Below are positions 19,505 through 61,009 of a stretch of 64,000 bases of DNA, piece by piece. Position 1 is the stretch's first letter; each line of letters opens with the position of its first letter. The notes beneath the pieces were generated by a model, which was not told the DNA's origin, ran no database searches, and saw only the letters and a list, made by a program, of their open reading frames with translations. The translations under genes and the position numbers were made by a program. The DNA is from Escherichia phage Ecwhy_1: sequence record MH791411.1; one strand, given 5' to 3'.

Positions 19505-20323
19505 TTAATTAGTTCGAGTATTATATTCGTACTCAAATGTATATACTAAATCTTTATCACAGTTTGGGTTACTTGCATCAAGAATATCACTGTTAGTAAT
19601 CATCCATTCAATATAGTTCAATGGAACAGTTTCCATTGGTTCGCCTTTGTGTTTACCAAATGGCATGAATTTATAACGCATTGGTGTATTACAGAATGTT
19701 ACGATTTGTTCACCAATGTCACCATTAGGGTCAATATGTCCACGTTCAATCGCAACTTCAATCAATTTGATTAGAACTTGATAACACATAAACACGTCAT
19801 CTTTTGCTGCGTGAGCATTGACTGCACGATGTACATCACGATAGCAACCAAATTTATACCACAAATAACTTAGAGTTAAGTTTTTAAATTCAGTGTCTTC
19901 TGCAAACATCTTCTTAGCTAAACGAAGGGTACAAATCCATTTATCTTCATCGAGCAAGTACTGCGAAACTGAGTTACGATATTTATATTCGTTATCTACC
20001 ATCATTCGGCGGTCAAATTGAACGTTGTGTCCAATAAAATAATTACGACACCCCATTAGTGCGTCAATGTTTTCTAAGTCATCTTTATAACCAATACAGT
20101 TTGCTACATCTTCAGTACTGATAAAATGCACAGCACTTGCTTCTGGTGGTATATCTTTTAGTGGTTTATAACGCAAAGTGTAGTTATCAATAGTATCAAT
20201 ATTCTCATGTGCATCGTGAGGATATGAAATACTAAATTCAATAATATCATCTTCACTTTCGACACCAGTTGTTTCGGTGTCTAGTACTGATACGTTTGAT
20301 AGGAACTCATCTAATTTTGTCAT
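19505..20323 (-). CDS. DEDDh 3'-5' exonuclease, DnaQ-like (DexA-like)
   Basis: 272 aa; Exo I LDTETTG, Exo II HNVQFD, Exo III H-x4-D (HAAKDD). Confidence 0.65.
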   Translation of the reverse strand: MTKLDEFLSNVSVLDTETTGVESEDDIIEFSISYPHDAHENIDTIDNYTLRYKPLKDIPPEASAVHFISTEDVANCIGYKDDLENIDALMGCRNYFIGHNVQFDRRMMVDNEYKYRNSVSQYLLDEDKWICTLRLAKKMFAEDTEFKNLTLSYLWYKFGCYRDVHRAVNAHAAKDDVFMCYQVLIKLIEVAIERGHIDPNGDIGEQIVTFCNTPMRYKFMPFGKHKGEPMETVPLNYIEWMITNSDILDASNPNCDKDLVYTFEYEYNTRTN

Positions 20324-40009: not shown

Positions 40010-41185
40010 TTACATGAAAGTAACGTTTTTGATAGCGATTTTGCTGTAGTAGTCAGCAGCGTTACCAAGAGAAGAAGTACTATCAGTCAATTGTACATAA
40101 CCATACCTGGTAAGGAAAGTTGTGACCAATTCCCCAGTGTTAGGGTCCATTACAGTACCGGAAGCCATTAGTGGGATGTATGGGCAATAGAACACACCAG
40201 CATCAGTTTCAGCATTACCTTTATAACCAATCAAAATGTCCTCGACATCTGAGGCATACGTATCGACAAAAATACGCATGGTGCTGTTTAGAGTACCAAC
40301 GAATTTAACGTTAGTTGGAGCTTCGAAAGTACCTTCAGTAGTACGTGCAAAACTAGAAGTAGTTGCAGACTGTAGAATGGTTAGAGCGGTTGGAGAAACA
40401 ACAGCCCAGTTCGCAGCACCACGTTTGGTACGACGAGCAACTTCGTTCGCTTGACGGTTGATTAGGGTAGCTAGAGCAGCGTGCTCGTCACCAACGAAGG
40501 TCGCAACACCAGTAACTTTAGATTGGTCATAAGTTACAGCAGCAGCACCAGGTAGTGCACGTAGACGGCTTAGTAGCTCTTGGTCGATTTCAACGGTAAC
40601 TTCTTGAGCGATTGCAGCCATTAGTTCAGCTTCAACATCGATACCATGTTGGGATTGTGCATCTTGTGCAGATTCAACAGTCCAACGTGCAGATAGACGA
40701 CGAGATTTCGCTTCAACAGTTTCACGTAGGATACGGATGTTAACGCGACGACCCATAGTACCTTCTAGTTGGCTAGTAGGAGCAGCTTGTGGGTTGCTGT
40801 TGTCTGCGTTTAGGTCACCAGTATAAGACTTAGCGATTTTGTATGGAGAAAGCATTTCTTCACCAGCGATAACACCAGGAGCGTTGTCAGCATATTGAAC
40901 ACGTAGGGTGTGGATCTGACCAACTGGGCCAGTCATTGGCTGAACACCGATGATTTCGTTAGCGATTACGGTTGGCATAACACGACGCATAATTGGTAGA
41001 ATCACTTTGTTTAGAGTAGCGATGTTACCAGCGGTGGTTGCACCAGAAGTAGCAGATTCGTTTAGCATTAGTTTACGATGGTTATCAAGTACGGTTTCCA
41101 TTACGGACTTACGAGTACCTTGTAGACCTTCAACTAGTTTCTCTTTAACTGCTACCCATTTGGATTCATTTAGTAGTTGTGACAT
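40010..41185 (-). CDS. major capsid protein (T4 gp23/gp24 family)
   Basis: 391 aa; HK97-fold gp23-like, N-terminal propeptide-like region; late promoter + AAGGAG upstream; strong terminator downstream. Confidence 0.85.
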   Translation of the reverse strand: MSQLLNESKWVAVKEKLVEGLQGTRKSVMETVLDNHRKLMLNESATSGATTAGNIATLNKVILPIMRRVMPTVIANEIIGVQPMTGPVGQIHTLRVQYADNAPGVIAGEEMLSPYKIAKSYTGDLNADNSNPQAAPTSQLEGTMGRRVNIRILRETVEAKSRRLSARWTVESAQDAQSQHGIDVEAELMAAIAQEVTVEIDQELLSRLRALPGAAAVTYDQSKVTGVATFVGDEHAALATLINRQANEVARRTKRGAANWAVVSPTALTILQSATTSSFARTTEGTFEAPTNVKFVGTLNSTMRIFVDTYASDVEDILIGYKGNAETDAGVFYCPYIPLMASGTVMDPNTGELVTTFLTRYGYVQLTDSTSSLGNAADYYSKIAIKNVTFM

Positions 41186-41229
41186 TATTATCTCCTTAAA
41201 GATGTTATATTCGTTTTTCAGTATGATAT

Positions 41230-41237
41230 TATTTATA
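41230..41237 (-). promoter_or_regulatory. late promoter -10-like element TATAAATA upstream of MCP
   Basis: Minus-strand TCTATAAATAATATCATACTG ~50 nt upstream of MCP ATG. Confidence 0.5.
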
Positions 41238-41275
41238 GAACTGAAAAATTTGATTATTAAAATGCTTTAAAATGT

Positions 41276-43943: not shown

Positions 43944-44043
43944 TATATCCTCCATAGATATATTACATTCATATAAAGTATGATATTATTTAGTACTGAA
44001 AAATTTCGCCATTTTTAAAAGCTTTAAAAAGTGCGATTTTTGT

Positions 44044-50833: not shown

Positions 50834-52981
50834 TTAGAATACATCATCAAGAGTTGTATACTCAACAGTACTGAAACCATCCTCTTTAACTACTTTTAGG
50901 ATTTTCTCAGTCTTAGAAAGCAATTCTTCTCTGTGAGAAATGGCATATACATTCTTACCACGCACAGCAGCCATATCTTGGAAGATAGACCACACGCGAA
51001 GAACACCACTTGAATCAAGACCTTGGTCAATCATCTCATCAATGATAAGAATATTGATACTTTGATACAATGACTCATATGTATCACGGAAAGCACAAGA
51101 TAAAGCAATGTTTACCCTTGTACGCTCACCGCGACTAAGCTGTTTATAGTCAAAGTACTGACCACTTTTCTCAATTTCTACACTCAAATCATTCAAGAAC
51201 ACAACATTATGTTCAGAACCACACATATCAATGTAATATTGAAGACGTGTATTCAGATACGAAATGTTTTGTTCAATAATACGCTTACGGACATAAGAAT
51301 CCTTGTTTAACAACAATTTAACCAAGAAATCTTGGTGATTTGCCATCTTATCAAGGTTATTATAGTCACTATAGTCGATTGGTACTAATGAATCGGTCGT
51401 AAGTGTATTAATTTGTCCAATAAATGTGTTAGTAGTTTTCAATTCACGATCTAATTGCTGCGATAATGAAGTTACTGTCATTTCTAACTCTTTTACTTCA
51501 GATTTATTCAATGTATCTGGTACTTCTTGAAGAACATGTGCGTTCAGTTCTTCATATGATGACATAAGTTCATTAGCATAGATGTTAATTTGCTCTTCTT
51601 CACTCTTTTTAATAAGTTCTTGAAGCTTATGCTCATGCATTTGTGCTTCAGTTAGTGTAGAATAGAATGTCACAGGCTTAGGTGGCATATCAAAAATCTC
51701 AATACTATCAATTTCCTGAAGTATTGTTTCAATTTCAGAAGCGGAACTATCAATTTTCGATTGAAGTTCATTAATAGTATTTTGAATTTTATCTTTAATA
51801 GACGAAGTATGTTCATTATGTTCTAATTCGGACATACAAAGTGGACATTTACTACTCTCCACTGTTGCTAATTTGTCCACCTCAGCACGTAACGAACTCT
51901 CATGACCATTTAAAGCCACCTTTAATGCGTTAAGTTTTTGTTCTTTGAAACGTTTTTGGTTATTATTCTCTTTTAGAATACCCTCCAACTGTTTCCATAT
52001 CTCCAACTCATTGTGATTTTCTAATTCAGTACTGATATCAATAGTTTTTAGCTTATCAATACTTACATTTAATGCTAATTTTGCTGTTGCTAGTTCACGG
52101 TCATATGCATCATACTTCAAAGCTAACTCTTGCACACGTCTTTCTATTTGATCACGAGCAGCATTATGAATAAGAGCTTTCTCTTTCACTTCTGCCAAAT
52201 CATAGAGATCGTTGAAGTCTAAAGTTTTGTAGATATTCAATTCTTCAGTCAACTTAGATACTCTATTATTTTTATCAATCTCAAATTGGTTAGCTTGTTC
52301 TTGTAATGATTCAATACTTTTTTGAATACGTTCATTACTTGCAGCCACAGTTTCAATTTTAAACTTTTCTTGTTCAGCTAAACGTTTAGAATCTTTATAC
52401 ATATCCTTTAATAGTTCAGCTTTCTCTGTTAATTGTGTGATGCCCAGAAGTTCCTCAATCATATCACGTTGTTTCTGTGATGATAATGCAAGAAACGGCT
52501 CTACGTTAGCATTAAGTACTACAATATGTTCAAATAGTAGTTGAGAAATCCCAAGAATCTCGTTTAGATCTTCTTGTGTATCTTTCTTCTCCCCTCTTGA
52601 CTCATCTTCGACCTTATTATCTTTACCTAATGTAATAAAGTTGAAATACGTGGGACTTCTCCCACGCTCGACGAGATATTGTACACCATCTTTCTCGAAC
52701 TCAACAGATACTTCACAGTTTTTAGCATTAGTTTTATTAACTAAGTTTGGAATTTTGATATCGTTACCAATACTTTTTCCAAACAAACCAAAAACTAAAC
52801 CTTGAATGATGGCACTTTTACCAACACCATTACGGCGACCGGAACTATCACCACCTTCAATAACTGCATCATTGTTTTGACCAAGAACTAACGATATATC
52901 AGCACCAGACAAATCAATTACTTGTGGTGCATTGCCAAATGAAAAGAAGTTCCTCATTGATATACGTGTAATGTTTAGCAC
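50834..52981 (-). CDS. recombination/repair ATPase, Rad50/SbcC-like (T4 gp46-like)
   Basis: 715 aa; Walker A GKSAIIQG, long coiled coil with CPLC zinc hook, C-terminal signature/Walker B region. Confidence 0.85.
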   Translation of the reverse strand: MLNITRISMRNFFSFGNAPQVIDLSGADISLVLGQNNDAVIEGGDSSGRRNGVGKSAIIQGLVFGLFGKSIGNDIKIPNLVNKTNAKNCEVSVEFEKDGVQYLVERGRSPTYFNFITLGKDNKVEDESRGEKKDTQEDLNEILGISQLLFEHIVVLNANVEPFLALSSQKQRDMIEELLGITQLTEKAELLKDMYKDSKRLAEQEKFKIETVAASNERIQKSIESLQEQANQFEIDKNNRVSKLTEELNIYKTLDFNDLYDLAEVKEKALIHNAARDQIERRVQELALKYDAYDRELATAKLALNVSIDKLKTIDISTELENHNELEIWKQLEGILKENNNQKRFKEQKLNALKVALNGHESSLRAEVDKLATVESSKCPLCMSELEHNEHTSSIKDKIQNTINELQSKIDSSASEIETILQEIDSIEIFDMPPKPVTFYSTLTEAQMHEHKLQELIKKSEEEQINIYANELMSSYEELNAHVLQEVPDTLNKSEVKELEMTVTSLSQQLDRELKTTNTFIGQINTLTTDSLVPIDYSDYNNLDKMANHQDFLVKLLLNKDSYVRKRIIEQNISYLNTRLQYYIDMCGSEHNVVFLNDLSVEIEKSGQYFDYKQLSRGERTRVNIALSCAFRDTYESLYQSINILIIDEMIDQGLDSSGVLRVWSIFQDMAAVRGKNVYAISHREELLSKTEKILKVVKEDGFSTVEYTTLDDVF

Positions 52982-52993
52982 AATAAATTTCCC

Positions 52994-54025
52994 TTATAGT
53001 GATCTGTAAATTTGGATTAGAAGATTTTTATCGAACATAGGTGAATCAATTTCCATGATTTGTTGTAACACAATCTCATCAACTGACTCAGTACTTTCAA
53101 AGCTTTCACCATCTTCAATAAGTTCTTTGATACTTTGCTTGCTAGTAACAACGTTAAACTCACGAATGTTATAAAGTTTAGTAAAAGTATCACGAATAAA
53201 ACTAATCTCATCAGTAGTGATAGCAATATCAACTTGAACCTTTGAAATAGTATTGTCTTGAAGATAATAACTTGGATCTGTTAATAGTTCTGAAAGTGTA
53301 AATGTTCTATATTTTGGTGCTTCTGACCAAGAATGGAAAGTTGGTTCTTTACCATGTTCTAAAATCATCACACCTCTTGCATCATCCCATGTATCAGAAA
53401 AGTTATGTGGGAAACAGTTACCTGTGTAAATTACACGAGTTCCTTTAGATGTTGTTTTTGCTTGTCTCTTGTGGAAATGTCCACTAAAAACATACTCACA
53501 ACCACCAAAAGAACCTTCAGTCTCTTTACCATGATCTGGCATCTCAACCATTTTATTGAGCAAGTATCCAGGTAACTCTAAGTGACCAAAAACATACTTA
53601 CTTTTAAGTTGAGGTAGAACTTTGTATTCATCTTCAATCATAAATGGAATGAAAGTACAATCATCAAATGTTGTGATTTCATTAATGAACTCGATGTTCT
53701 CATAAACTTGTGCCATATTAATACTAGTAATGTCACGTTTATTTTTATGATACATGTCATGGTTCCCAACTAAGAAGTAAACCTTATCAAAGTTGTCATT
53801 TAGTAATTGTAGAATTTGTAAACCATAGTTTAATGTTTGAATGTTAATATTACTGCGGTTATGGAAGTAATCTCCCATAAACACGCATACAGTAATACCA
53901 TTTTTCTTAGCAAGTTCAATCATAAACTTGATGAAGTTCAAACAATCTTCGTTGTGCTGCTTGCTGTTATTCTTTAATCCTAAATGAATATCAGTAAATG
54001 TAATTGCTTTATCAAATAGAGCCAT
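52994..54025 (-). CDS. Mre11/SbcD-like nuclease (T4 gp47-like)
   Basis: Start at MALFDK; phosphoesterase motifs DIHLG, GDYFH, GNHD. Confidence 0.85.
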   Translation of the reverse strand: MALFDKAITFTDIHLGLKNNSKQHNEDCLNFIKFMIELAKKNGITVCVFMGDYFHNRSNINIQTLNYGLQILQLLNDNFDKVYFLVGNHDMYHKNKRDITSINMAQVYENIEFINEITTFDDCTFIPFMIEDEYKVLPQLKSKYVFGHLELPGYLLNKMVEMPDHGKETEGSFGGCEYVFSGHFHKRQAKTTSKGTRVIYTGNCFPHNFSDTWDDARGVMILEHGKEPTFHSWSEAPKYRTFTLSELLTDPSYYLQDNTISKVQVDIAITTDEISFIRDTFTKLYNIREFNVVTSKQSIKELIEDGESFESTESVDEIVLQQIMEIDSPMFDKNLLIQIYRSL

Positions 54026-54851
54026 CTTCGTTTTTCCTTTCAATCATGTTCATTTCAATTTCGATTTGACGAGTGTGTGATGGTGTAAAACCATGCATCT
54101 CAAGTAAATCGTCTCGGATGTTACGAACATTTTTCTCACTATTAAGAATCGAACGGAAACTATTGTTAACGAACGAAGTATAGTAAGAGAAAGGATTCAA
54201 CTGTACTGCTGGTTTATCTTTTTTGTAAAGAATACTCTCTTTAAAGAGAAGTGCGTTTTTAACTAATTGTATTCTGGCATCACCCATCATTTCATCCAAA
54301 TATGTATAGTTTCTATAGTTGGATTTGTGTGAGATTTCCTCTGCCAGTTTAATGAACATTTTACCTAGTTCATTAGTGATTTTACCATGAACAGTACTGA
54401 ATTCTCCGTCTTCAAGATCACCTTTCCAGTGAGAACGAACGACTTCGTACAGAATACCTTCTTCATCTACAATGTAATGTTTGAATGGTTCAAAATTTAC
54501 TCTTGTATCTGCTGGGATATGTTCATCGGTAATTACACGAATAACCACCTCATCGATAGGTACATCAGTCAGTACTAAATTGTGCTCATCTGCGTATTCC
54601 TTCGCTTTCTTCGCACTCATACCTTCTTTTTCACGAATTGCATCAAGCATTTCATTGTTGAGACGTTTAATACGTGCTGCTTTAGCTTTATCTAAAAGTT
54701 CTGCTGTAATTTCGGATTCATCAAAAACGATATAATCGTACATACTGTAGCACTTATCTAGTAACCAGCAATATGAGATTTTACTTTTTTGTATCTCACG
54801 AAGTAAATCAGCATTGTTAAGATACTTTTTACGCTTCGGCCTATTTGTCAT
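54012..54851 (-). CDS. late-transcription sigma factor (T4 gp55-like) with large internal insertion
   Basis: Start at MTNRPKRKKYLNN (GGAGAG upstream); N-region KKYLNNADLLREI and C-region ITNELGKMFIKLAEE...NPFSYYTSFVNNSFRSI resemble gp55; ~279 aa versus ~185 in T4. Confidence 0.6.
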   Translation of the reverse strand: MTNRPKRKKYLNNADLLREIQKSKISYCWLLDKCYSMYDYIVFDESEITAELLDKAKAARIKRLNNEMLDAIREKEGMSAKKAKEYADEHNLVLTDVPIDEVVIRVITDEHIPADTRVNFEPFKHYIVDEEGILYEVVRSHWKGDLEDGEFSTVHGKITNELGKMFIKLAEEISHKSNYRNYTYLDEMMGDARIQLVKNALLFKESILYKKDKPAVQLNPFSYYTSFVNNSFRSILNSEKNVRNIRDDLLEMHGFTPSHTRQIEIEMNMIERKNEDGSI

Positions 54852-54939
54852 TATTTCAACTCTCCATGTTTTAAATCCAATAGGTACATTCCTTGTACCA
54901 TCAATGTTATTATAGCACCAAAAACGTCTTTGTCCCACG

Positions 54940-54947
54940 TATAAATA
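54940..54947 (+). promoter_or_regulatory. late promoter -10-like element TATAAATA upstream of first baseplate-module gene
   Basis: CACGTATAAATACATC ~36 nt upstream of ATG 54983; divergent from the sigma gene. Confidence 0.45.
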
Positions 54948-54982
54948 CATCAAATGTTCCCTTCTTATGGAGAATCAAAAAG

Positions 54983-55714
54983 ATGATTGATCGTAGAATC
55001 CGATTAAGACCTAAAACCGCAGGTGCTAACTATGTGTATGGTGATTTTGGCAACAGTTCAGAACCAACATTGCTATCGTTTCTGCGTCCAACAAATGGTT
55101 TGGTTTGGACTGTAACCCCAACTGTAACTGAACAAAGGTCGGTTCAATATGAAACACAGTCCCCTATACATACTAACAGTAACTACAACAACTACAAGAA
55201 TACAACAAACACTGTTTTCACTATTCAAGGTGAGTTTTATGCGAACACTGCTGCTGAAGCAATGTATGCATTGGCTTGTGTTCATTTTATTCGTTCCGTG
55301 TCCTTAATGGACTTTGGTCGTCAAGCAGCATCTGCTAATAATCCCGAACTAGCAATTGCAGGTGCACCACCGCCAATTTTACTATTAAGTGGGTATGGTC
55401 GTTATACATATAATGATATTCCTGTTATTTTGAAAGCATATAATTTTACATATCCAAATGATGTTTCTTACATTCAGGTTCCATTGAATAGTAGTGATAG
55501 TACTTTTAATTTATCTGATATGGATAGTCGTAAATTCTTCGAACAGCTTAGAAGTACTGGATATATGAATCCACAAGATGAGGTATGGGTTCCACAGAAA
55601 ATATCGGTAACGCTTCAACTTGAAGAACAACCAACATCTGATTACATGACTAAAAAGTTCAACCTAAATGCATTTAAGCGTGGTGAACTATTACGTAATG
55701 GAGGATTTATCTAA
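54983..55714 (+). CDS. putative baseplate/tail-tube-associated protein (gp48/gp54-like?), tentative
   Basis: Start at MIDRRIR with GGAG RBS; first gene of plus-strand late module. Confidence 0.45.
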   Translation: MIDRRIRLRPKTAGANYVYGDFGNSSEPTLLSFLRPTNGLVWTVTPTVTEQRSVQYETQSPIHTNSNYNNYKNTTNTVFTIQGEFYANTAAEAMYALACVHFIRSVSLMDFGRQAASANNPELAIAGAPPPILLLSGYGRYTYNDIPVILKAYNFTYPNDVSYIQVPLNSSDSTFNLSDMDSRKFFEQLRSTGYMNPQDEVWVPQKISVTLQLEEQPTSDYMTKKFNLNAFKRGELLRNGGFI

Positions 55715-56028
55715 TGTCCAATTATAGTCAATACTCTCCTTATGCAAAGGTTAAACAAACGTGGTATCTTGGTTACAATTTACCACGTGATATGGTTCCT
55801 GCTGATACTGACGACTTCTATGTAATTCCATTGAAGTATGAGCATCAACCTTGGCGTTTAGCATACGAAATGTATGGTAATGAACGTCTGTATTATGTAT
55901 TTGCCCTATTGAATCCTGATATATTAGGAGAAGACCCAATATACAATTTTAATAGTGGTATCACAATTCGTGTTCCCTCAAATCAACGAGTGCAAAACTA
56001 TTTGAACGGTACTCGTAACATAGGTTAA
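55714..56028 (+). CDS. hypothetical baseplate-module protein (104 aa)
   Basis: Coupled to neighbours within late module. Confidence 0.4.
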   Translation: MSNYSQYSPYAKVKQTWYLGYNLPRDMVPADTDDFYVIPLKYEHQPWRLAYEMYGNERLYYVFALLNPDILGEDPIYNFNSGITIRVPSNQRVQNYLNGTRNIG

Positions 56029-56039
56029 TGGAGTAAAGT

Positions 56040-58295
56040 ATGGCAGATTTACAAAGTTCTGTTGATAATTTTAAAAATGATATTTCAAACATCACAAGTT
56101 CTGCAAAGGCAGCAAAAGAAACTGCAACAAGTACTATTGAAAGCTTAAAAGCCACTGCTAATACTTTGCAAAATGATCTTGAAAAAGTAAAAAACAATTT
56201 TAAAGCTAAGGTTAGTAACGTACAGTCTTTACCAAAGCAAAGTGCAAGCGTTGACCAAGTGTATGAAGACTTGGATCTAAGTGAGTTTGTTATTCCTTAT
56301 GACAATAAATTGTTAAAGTATGACAATCCAACTTGGCACTTTTCCCTTTTCGCATTAGACAAGGATGATTTCAAAAACTTCTGGCTTTACCCAGATGCTG
56401 AAGTTCAACGTCATGTCATCTCTGAAAGTGGTGTAACTGGAAAGTATAATATCACAAGTGTTCAGATGACGCAAGCTGGTCCTTCAACTCCAGGGATGAC
56501 AACCAACTATTGCTTCAACACAGCAGTACTGAACCTTTCAGAAAACAATAGTATGAGTTTATATGATGAACTAATTTCTTTAAGTAATAAACTAAGGTAT
56601 CATAAGTTCATGGACTTACCTTTAATATTAGAATTGAAATTTATTGGATTCAATACTAATGGTGTACCTGAAACTATACCAGAAACAACTCGTAAATGGT
56701 CCGTGAAGATTAACAGTGTTACCGCTAGTGCATCACAAAGTGGTAGTACTATGATGTATTCTATGAGTCTTGTTCATAACCGTACTGCTCTAGTGGATAA
56801 CGTTGAATGGACTCTTAAAGAACCATTTAACTGCACAGCAGAAAACTTTGGTGATTTTTGTTTTGATTTGGAAGATAAATTGAATCAAATGGCAGACCAA
56901 CAATATGGTTATTTGCGTTATAAATTTGGTGAGTTAGCAGAAGGGAAGTTCTTTGAATTTAAAGTTGCACCAGATTTACAGGATTTGTTTATAAACTATG
57001 ATTCTAAACAGATGGCAGAAGCTGGAGCTACAAAAAGTGGTGCACAGGGTTCTAAAAACTTTTCATGGAATCCAAGTACTCCAATTTCTCGAATTATCGA
57101 TGACGTAATAGATACCTGTACTGTACAGGCTGATGATAGTACTAGTGTTCGTCAATTTGTTAATATAATCCCACTTAAACAGTATGTTGGATTTGATAAT
57201 TACCGAAACACGTCAGTTTATAAAGTTGTTTTCTATATAGTTCGTTTTAAAATTGGTGATATTGTTCATGAATCCGATTTACAGCCAGAAAACTTTACAT
57301 TTGAGTATTTCTTTGAAAATGCCGAGAAATATGTAGACCCAAATGACCAAAAACCAAAGATTAACATGAAAACTTACAATTATCAGTTTAGTGGACTCAA
57401 TAGTGAGATTCTAGACCTTGATTTGAAGTTTGACCAGCAATTCTTTGTGGCTACAACTCGTAACCCTGGACCAATACAGGATGTTGCTAACCACGCTGGT
57501 ACTCATACCTCCCAAGAATTGAATATACAAGGGGTTCAGTACAACAGTATACCAGATGCATGGGCAAAAACAAGTGATTTACGCGTTACACGTGATCTTG
57601 GTGGTATGTTAACACAGGCCCAGGAACAACTACTCAATAAAGTTGAAACTTTAGCAAAAGAACAAATGCAAGTTGGTAATGCTGAAGAACAGGATCGTTA
57701 TAATAACTATCAAGTAAACGTTCTACCACAGTATATTGAAGATTATGTAACCACATATGAAGAAAATGACGGTGGAACCGATGGAATTGGTCATCGATAT
57801 GGTGAAGTGTTTACAATGCCGACTGAAGCAACAAATAATGAAACAACATTGTCTGCATCATTGAACGATAACAGTAGCACATATGAAATGGATCGCCGTA
57901 AAATTCGTGACAACTATTACAATCGTCCATTCTTGTGTAAATTGGATATGCGTGTTGTTGGTGACCCATTCTGGTTGGGTTGGAGTGATTATTCATATAT
58001 CCAATATCTTGAACAGGTAATTAATGGGGAAGATATGGAAATTAATCCCGAAGATTACCATGTTGCTAACTATATTACATCTGAAGCATATCTTTTATTG
58101 AAATTACAACCTGTGGTTTCTATAAATGATAATACTGGTGTTCTTGATATTAATACACCAACTACATTTAACCAAACTGTATATCGTGTTAACAAAATTG
58201 TTCATGATTTTGGTGCAGGTGGTTCATTTACACAACAAATTCAGGCTGCAATTGTAATTCGTGCACTCAAACGTCACGATAGTATAATTGAATAA
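56040..58295 (+). CDS. putative baseplate hub/structural protein (751 aa)
   Basis: Large ORF directly upstream of the gp5-like spike gene; GGAG RBS. Confidence 0.5.
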   Translation: MADLQSSVDNFKNDISNITSSAKAAKETATSTIESLKATANTLQNDLEKVKNNFKAKVSNVQSLPKQSASVDQVYEDLDLSEFVIPYDNKLLKYDNPTWHFSLFALDKDDFKNFWLYPDAEVQRHVISESGVTGKYNITSVQMTQAGPSTPGMTTNYCFNTAVLNLSENNSMSLYDELISLSNKLRYHKFMDLPLILELKFIGFNTNGVPETIPETTRKWSVKINSVTASASQSGSTMMYSMSLVHNRTALVDNVEWTLKEPFNCTAENFGDFCFDLEDKLNQMADQQYGYLRYKFGELAEGKFFEFKVAPDLQDLFINYDSKQMAEAGATKSGAQGSKNFSWNPSTPISRIIDDVIDTCTVQADDSTSVRQFVNIIPLKQYVGFDNYRNTSVYKVVFYIVRFKIGDIVHESDLQPENFTFEYFFENAEKYVDPNDQKPKINMKTYNYQFSGLNSEILDLDLKFDQQFFVATTRNPGPIQDVANHAGTHTSQELNIQGVQYNSIPDAWAKTSDLRVTRDLGGMLTQAQEQLLNKVETLAKEQMQVGNAEEQDRYNNYQVNVLPQYIEDYVTTYEENDGGTDGIGHRYGEVFTMPTEATNNETTLSASLNDNSSTYEMDRRKIRDNYYNRPFLCKLDMRVVGDPFWLGWSDYSYIQYLEQVINGEDMEINPEDYHVANYITSEAYLLLKLQPVVSINDNTGVLDINTPTTFNQTVYRVNKIVHDFGAGGSFTQQIQAAIVIRALKRHDSIIE

Positions 58296-60972: not shown

Positions 60973-61009
60973 ATATTTCAGTACTATAAATAATAATGAG
61001 GAAATCTTT

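Follow-up and report, generated by a model that had tools for sequence, protein, structure and literature searches.

An inserted domain conserved in the gp55-type late sigma factors of RaK2-like and related jumbo phages

Background

Late transcription in phage T4 is the classic example of the use of a minimal sigma factor, gp55, that depends on a DNA-loaded sliding clamp and a co-activator. The question raised by the locus described here is what a large extra segment is doing inside a sigma factor of this minimal type. The DNA analysed, referred to below as the window, is a stretch of 64,000 nucleotides from Escherichia phage Ecwhy_1 (MH791411.1), a RaK2-like (Asteriusvirus-type) jumbo coliphage. 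An initial annotation had assigned an open reading frame (ORF) on its minus strand to a gp55-like late sigma factor, with N- and C-terminal regions matching gp55 that are separated by roughly 100-130 amino acids absent from the T4 protein. The ORF (ATG at 54849-54851, TGA at 54012-54014) was confirmed, and every peptide previously quoted from it is present in its translation. The protein itself is already known, having a late sigma factor annotation in several records and a PHROG family of its own; what seems to be new is the inserted domain, its placement, and the missing C-terminal tail. Full-text searching of the literature gave no description of the domain, its position, or the missing tail.

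Identity and anatomy of the sigma factor

The gene and the segments of its product are listed below; the helices of the sigma fold are numbered H1 to H5.

54012..54851, minus strand: late sigma factor coding sequence, 279 amino acids plus TGA (ORF translation and phrog_12791 match)
54777..54851, minus strand: residues 1-25, conserved segment 1 with helix H1 (model helix 13-25, predicted local distance difference test score (pLDDT) 86-95) and with Y10 and N13 (alignment, T4 profile, and model)
54384..54776, minus strand: residues 26-156, inserted alpha/beta domain (strands 40-42, 104-107, 123-128, and 134-139; helices 50-76 and 80-89)
54585..54704, minus strand: residues 50-89, helical hairpin in the insert, its variable part, which some homologues have in shortened form or not at all
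54384..54554, minus strand: residues 100-156, best-conserved part of the insert, running straight into H2 (R105, H111, P113, F120, P122, F123, H125, V137, S140, H141, W142, G149, G156)
54096..54383, minus strand: residues 157-252, sigma-region-2-like core with H2-H4
54015..54095, minus strand: residues 253-279, loop and H5 (helix 259-275), completing a helix-loop-helix (model)

The protein matched phrog_12791, 'sigma factor for late transcription', over its full length (residues 3-277 against profile positions 2-284 of 286, E 9e-153). This family contains proteins of RaK2-like, PA5oct-like, and other jumbo phages, and the window protein is a member of it with no differences; the family name is only transferred by homology, and no described domain structure or experiment was found for it. 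The match to the T4-type family phrog_234 was restricted to residues 128-262. A comparison with T4 gp55 by BLASTP gave an E value of 2e-4. Two alignments were used for more sensitive searches, one of 30 long forms (A1) and one of 23 T4-type proteins (A2), and their profile-profile comparison with hhalign returned a probability of 97.8%. The A1 profile matched T4 gp55 in the PDB (7d7c_F, E 5.6e-7), and the sigma part of the window protein is predicted to consist of five helices, of which H1-H4 form a sigma-region-2-like body and H4-H5 a helix-loop-helix. The predicted template modelling score (pTM) of the full-length model was 0.78. Neither Pfam nor NCBIfam has a family covering the window protein, T4 gp55, or the insert.

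Correspondence with T4 gp55 (PDB 7D7C/7D7D chain F; phrog_234) extends to single residues. In the T4 protein, N13 lines the pocket for the -9 adenine, and alanine substitutions of N13, F86, Y97, and T99 impair open-complex formation (PMC7892883). The T4 pocket residues for the flipped -12, -9, and -8 adenines (N13, F86, H95, Y97, and T99) are N13, F203, F221, Y223, and T225 in the window protein, and all five are conserved in the long-form family, including F221 in place of T4 H95. The clamp-helix contacts E70, D74, and E77 of T4 correspond to E187, D191, and I194; E187 is invariant in A1, and D191, although present in the window protein, varies in the family. The two proteins thus share the N-terminal motif, the non-template pocket residues, and a related (T)ATAAATA promoter motif, and both are without sigma regions 3 and 4. 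They differ in the 119 additional residues that make up a domain of their own between H1 and H2 of the window protein, in about nine more residues in its H3-H4 loop, in the replacement of H95 by phenylalanine and of the aromatic residue at position 23 by serine, and in the C-terminal tail discussed below.

The alignments, the profile comparisons, and the structure prediction all bear out the assignment to the gp55 family. The window protein is a late-gene sigma factor of the minimal gp55 type, with a region-2-like four-helix body and a helix-loop-helix, and its identity and anatomy taken together can be regarded as very nearly certain. By analogy with T4, it would bind the beta' clamp helices of the host RNA polymerase and read (T)ATAAATA by flipping non-template bases into its pockets. 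Phage PA5oct, whose long form is 40% identical to the window protein, is sensitive to rifampicin and encodes no RNA polymerase of its own.

A single insertion between H1 and H2

The N-terminal motif of the window protein carries the same residue numbers as in T4 (Y10, N12, N13, L16, L17, I20, and K24), and the pattern Y10-x-N-N13...K24 is conserved at the N-terminus of the long forms to at least 81%. Between K24 and I43 of T4 there are 18 residues, compared with 137 between K24 and the equivalent L162 of the window protein. The net insertion is therefore 119 amino acids, in one block between H1 and H2, and the folded domain spans approximately residues 26-156. The T4-type profile matches the window protein twice, at residues 4-24 (8 bits, E 1.3e-4 for one comparison) and, on the sigma-2-like segment, at residues 124-243 (42.6 bits, E 3e-15). 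The match of this profile likewise falls into two clear parts in distant homologues, as in P0242 (residues 2-29 and 165-250). The match of both ends to gp55 and the presence of an extra segment without a counterpart in T4 are in this way upheld, and alignment with gp55 orthologues showed that the extra length is a single block and not ordinary loop variation distributed along the protein.

The exact junction is uncertain by a few residues. Sequence methods favour pairing T4 W23 with W142 of the window protein, in which case the distance between this tryptophan and the glycine that opens H2 is the same in both proteins (21 residues) and the insert consists of residues 23-141. This pairing also bears on a different view of the protein, in which the extra residues are an N-terminal extension, the equivalent of the T4 N-terminus is found at residues 124-143, and residues 1-123 are a new domain. 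BLASTP, hhalign, and HMMER do produce a contiguous alignment of window residues 124/142-248 with T4 residues 8/23-122, with W142 opposite W23 and the tryptophan-to-glycine spacing preserved. However, residues 124-141 are poorly supported by the posterior values in the alignment to the T4 profile, and residues 123-139 are modelled as a confident beta-hairpin, whereas T4 gp55 is described as built of five helices. The Y-x-N-N helix, moreover, is at the N-terminus of the long forms, where the T4 profile matches it independently, and the match is in two parts in many homologues. Because of the hairpin and the position of this helix, an N-terminal extension is considered highly improbable. At most, the contiguous local alignments support a junction just before T4 W23 (W142) rather than after K24, and this may be what they mean.

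Fold, conservation, and distribution of the inserted domain

When the insert was modelled alone from its own alignment, it folded confidently (pLDDT 91.8, pTM 0.81), in line with the independent inserted domain for which structure prediction had been suggested as a check. Sixteen columns of the insert alignment are invariant. Conservation was also measured over 98 sequences, consisting of the window protein and 97 cluster representatives. Residues S140 and G156 are conserved in 100% of the sequences, F120 and G149 in 99%, R105 and H141 in 96%, and H111, P113, and W142 in 95%; H125 is found in 93%, with glutamine in six sequences, and C28 in 84%, with serine in about 10 of the 98. A Cys/His metal site is possible from this pattern of residues. 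Many representatives are without insert-profile positions of about 40-70. The insert of the window protein is acidic (16 K/R and 29 D/E, net charge -13), but its charge is inconsistent across the family (median net charge -2, interquartile range -5 to +1), and a basic DNA-binding surface was rejected on both counts.

A profile of the insert alone was searched against 1.84 billion cluster representatives and matched 408 clusters (formed at 50% identity) at E <= 0.001, 258 of them at E <= 1e-10. In every complete protein among the 150 best matches, the order was H1, insert, sigma core, and in none of these complete proteins was the insert seen outside a gp55-like sigma factor. Against phrog_12791, the insert alone matched profile positions 23-165 (E 1.2e-61). 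Its fold had no significant match among solved structures or viral predicted structures, the sole Foldseek match in the latter set being a 100%-identical fragment. Weak matches at the Pfam/NCBIfam level to AtTam9 and UfSP2_N were taken as chance, and a match to TFIIS (E 0.2) was dismissed for the same reason. On the evidence of the models and alignments, the insert is predicted to be a self-contained, independently folding, and strongly conserved domain without a known fold. The idea in the initial annotation that it could serve regulation or interaction is a reasonable one.

Over 81 alignment columns, the BFVD entry A0A2Z5HHY8 (134 amino acids), a predicted viral structure, matches part of the insert with 100% identity; it probably represents this sigma factor gene in a relative, split or truncated in gene calling.

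The C-terminal tail

The window protein ends in ...IERKNEDGSI, four residues past H5, and neither its sequence nor its model contains a linker or a sliding-clamp-binding motif, a difference from T4 that the initial annotation does not mention. T4 gp55, in contrast, has a C-terminal linker of about 35 residues and the clamp-binding motif SLDFLYEAND, and T4-type proteins finish in L-D/E-F-L-Y-like motifs on a linker.

Tails of other kinds were observed elsewhere among the long forms. Many distant members (P0314, P0321, P0329, P0337, P0339, P0343, P0362, P0363, P0375, and others) have an AT-hook-like (K)RGRKPK tail in the place of the sliding-clamp-binding motif of T4 gp55, and long forms of the Vibrio-phage type have acidic-hydrophobic tail motifs such as LFDFGD or LTYDD. 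Judged from these endings, the tail seems to be an exchangeable module in the long-form family.

Proposed role of the inserted domain

A possible role is suggested by comparison with cellular sigma factors. Helix H1, with N13, would resemble their region-1.2 helix and H2 their region 2.1, and the insert would therefore be situated at the junction of regions 1.2 and 2.1, where primary sigma factors have their non-conserved region (NCR). The NCR of Escherichia coli sigma70 is acidic and contacts beta'. There is no detectable similarity in sequence or fold between the insert and a known NCR, the insert is much smaller than that of E. coli, and the protein that hosts it is a minimal sigma factor without regions 3 and 4. 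In the mechanism proposed, the insert would project from the sigma-2 face away from the clamp helices and the DNA pockets, where it would add contacts with RNA polymerase (the beta' clamp, the zinc-binding domain, or the zipper surface), and the upstream fork might be contacted as well. The holoenzyme and the open complex would thereby become more stable, late transcription would need neither gp33 as co-activator nor gp45 as sliding clamp, and the clamp-binding tail would have been lost accordingly.

On its own, T4 gp55 sustains no more than weak basal transcription; activation by the clamp is about 300-fold relative to the basal level and more than 1000-fold relative to the level repressed by gp33 (PMC2988020). 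Because T4 gp55 is weak without the clamp, it is proposed that the insert provides the stabilisation that phages without gp33 and gp45 would otherwise lack. In RaK2 and CBB most T4 replisome homologues are reported, gp45 and gp62 were not detected, and in CBB neither was gp33; the structural and late genes of CBB are preceded by ATAAATA motifs (PMC5259590, PMC3622015). That contacts made by the insert enable clamp-independent late transcription is the reading preferred here, and it is put forward tentatively, with somewhat more doubt than belief. A functional analogue may be T4 gp33, the late co-activator that binds the beta flap, although the analogy is hypothetical. In published T4 work, gp33 is described as making an extra polymerase contact, with an acidic patch toward the beta' zinc-binding domain. 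Unlike the insert, gp33 is a separate protein with a clamp-binding tail of its own that represses basal transcription, and the two are not homologous. It is possible, but doubtful, that the insert is itself a built-in co-activator, that is, a new RNA-polymerase-binding fold, maybe with a His/Cys metal site (C28, H111, H125, and H141), which makes the gp55 scaffold self-sufficient.

Several points weigh against clamp-independent transcription through the insert. The absence of gp45 and gp33 comes from BLAST-level searches in relatives rather than in the genome of the window itself. The net acidity of the insert in the window protein (-13) is not a consistent property of the family. Sequence-specific DNA contact by the insert is unlikely because the late promoters of the window, identified as 12 intergenic ATAAATA motifs located 17-64 nucleotides 5' of its genes, share only ATAAATA; when the 12 were aligned, no other position was conserved and no -35 element was found. 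The same insert coexists with AT-hook-like tails in distant long forms, and other long forms have acidic-hydrophobic tails with possible clamp-binding motifs; the insert is therefore not simply a substitute for tethering. Finally, such phages retain a clamp-loader homologue and Pol III-like subunits, and the host beta clamp could be involved.

In another view, the insert is a docking platform for a further factor, which might be a co-activator of the phage, the host beta clamp, or an anti-sigma factor; it would time or couple late transcription and not itself strengthen the contact with the polymerase. The domain is highly conserved and acidic and has no DNA-binding signature, the family is found in genomes with hundreds of unknown genes, and the relatives with clamp-loader and Pol III-like genes have no phage clamp. 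T4 couples late transcription to replication by protein-protein tethers (PMC2988020), and a recent paper reports use of the host beta clamp in late transcription of phage Mu. The candidate partners remain hypothetical, however, an unsystematic inspection by eye showed no obvious QL[SD]LF-type motif for beta-clamp binding in the insert, and the conserved residues are mostly of a buried type (F, W, G, P, and H) that would fit the core of a fold equally well. A docking function is judged rather unlikely. Acidity would also suit an autoinhibitory module comparable to sigma region 1.1, masking the DNA pockets or the DNA channel of the polymerase until the holoenzyme or open complex is formed and so reducing non-specific DNA binding, a task that falls to gp33 in the case of T4 gp55. 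The T4 gp55-polymerase binds DNA with low specificity, and gp33, reported absent from CBB, represses both basal transcription and non-specific binding (PMC2988020). The charge of -13 in the window protein is nevertheless not shared by the family, the insert is placed between H1 and H2 and not on a flexible terminus, and the pTM of the full-length model suggests a fixed orientation, which leaves autoinhibition improbable.

A specific role in transcription might also be lacking altogether, the insert being a tolerated structural embellishment or what is left of a domesticated mobile element, for instance a degenerate mini-intein. Its size is that of a mini-intein, its residues include C28, the TxxH motif T108-H111, and conserved histidines, and true inteins are found elsewhere in homologues of the window protein. 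Against this, Pfam gives no intein or Hint match, the junctions are without the C/S...HN+C/S/T arrangement (no HN-plus-nucleophile junction) of the true inteins, C28 is replaced by serine in some members, and conservation over 408 clusters indicates purifying selection on function. The degenerate intein was rejected as a candidate, and an insert without a specific role is thought slightly less probable still than an autoinhibitory one. Clamp-independent late transcription through added polymerase contacts remains the reading put forward here.

Start codon and promoter of the sigma gene

The start assigned to the gene affects the apparent length of the N-terminal segment. Twenty-nine aligned homologues, drawn from 333 matches, begin with M-x-x-(x)-K/R-K-K-Y-L-N-N within a few residues, and residues 1-25 are conserved both in these and in the 97 cluster representatives, so that the start does not lie at a later codon, a possibility raised in the initial annotation. 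An earlier ATG, at 54950, is used in the GenBank relatives fEgEco12 (g336) and P0001 to give a protein of 312 amino acids, but the 33 added residues are missing in homologues of 279-291 amino acids. The signals found 5' of the gene are as follows.

54860..54865, minus strand: Shine-Dalgarno sequence GGAGAG, 8 nucleotides 5' of ATG 54851 (read from the sequence)
54909..54937, minus strand: putative sigma70-type promoter of the sigma gene, with TGGGACA at 54931-54937, a 16-nucleotide spacer, and the extended -10 element TGCTATAAT at 54909-54917
54940..54947, plus strand: TATAAATA late-promoter motif, predicted to be recognised by the sigma factor and located 35 nucleotides 5' of the divergently transcribed baseplate gene (ATG 54983)

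The putative TGCTATAAT promoter is downstream of ATG 54950, and the 131-bp intergenic gap at the sigma gene also contains the TATAAATA motif serving the divergent baseplate gene. On the strength of the conserved N-terminus, the GGAGAG sequence, and the positions of these two elements, ATG 54851 is taken from the sequence to be the correct start, and the ATG 54950 start in several database records is probably a mis-annotation. The assignment corrects gene starts in several GenBank records.

The promoter of the sigma gene belongs to a second promoter class on the minus strand of the window, which also precedes five other genes and consists of a -35-like TGrGACA, a spacer of about 16-17 nucleotides, and an extended -10 element TGnTATAAT.

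Upstream of gene starts 6694, 13101, 23087, 31987, 35940, and 54851, minus strand: TGrGACA/TGnTATAAT promoters (motif search)

This class agrees with the promoters called 'divergent RpoD-like' in CBB and GAP32, and the CBB paper describes the same class 5' of the gp55-like gene of that phage.

Late promoters in the window

Exact copies of TATAAATA number six in the whole window compared with 7.1 expected, which is not above chance, and only their position and orientation are informative: five of the six are within the 7% of the window that is intergenic and point toward a gene. As noted above, the 12 late promoters share nothing outside ATAAATA, and an extra promoter element read by the insert was on this basis rejected.

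The sole exact copy of TATAAATA outside the intergenic regions is located at 19980-19987 on the minus strand, inside an ORF on the same strand (19505-20323), and could be an internal late promoter or reflect a mis-called ORF start in the approximate gene map. Three late-type promoters (41186-41275, 43956-44043, and 60973-61009) have in common a longer box, TTTCAGT(A/T)CT-(A)TAAATAAT, which in two of the three runs on as ...ATATCATACT; they may represent a strong late subclass for the genes starting at 41185, 43955, and 61010.

Gene neighbourhood

Window positions 52000-57000 are 99.5-99.7% identical in nucleotide sequence to Escherichia phages EC.P1 (99.7%), TH47, and fEgEco12 and to five further records. 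The 3' end of the sigma coding sequence shares 14 nucleotides with the downstream gp47-like nuclease gene (ATG 54023-54025), which is followed on the same strand by a gp46-like nuclease gene, and the sigma gene is divergent from the baseplate genes. A 99.6%-identical relative is annotated with the same order of sigma factor, gp47-like, and gp46-like genes. The neighbourhood of gene 55 in T4, where the gp47 and gp46 nuclease genes adjoin, is the same.

Inteins in homologous sigma factors

Metagenomic long-form gp55 homologues of 445-980 amino acids contain inteins within the sigma core. One intein is present in P0253, P0257, P0264, P0272, P0275, and P0336 and two in P0268, P0327, P0339, P0343, and P0350; in P0350 a LAGLIDADG domain scored above the Pfam threshold. 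Site 1 is equivalent to Y182|T183 of the window protein (approximately nucleotides 54303-54308) and has the conserved junction ...NWRGY|C...TGN|T/S-Y-x-DEM. Site 2 is equivalent to N230|S231 (approximately nucleotides 54159-54164), in the DNA-recognition helix, with the junction ...KN|C...xN|CFTR.LNLEK. To our knowledge, inteins in a phage sigma factor have not been reported previously.

Conclusions

A large and diverse clade of jumbo phages, represented by 408 clusters, retains the gp55 core and the ATAAATA promoter, and in its RaK2-like branch the clamp-binding tail has been lost. If the insert were indeed a built-in co-activator, this would explain how T4-style late promoters are used without gp33 or a phage clamp in so large a clade. 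Finding the contacts of the insert would reveal how a sigma factor consisting of region 2 only becomes self-sufficient, and would offer a point of access to the control of late genes in therapeutic jumbo phages, PA5oct and the RaK2-like ones among them.

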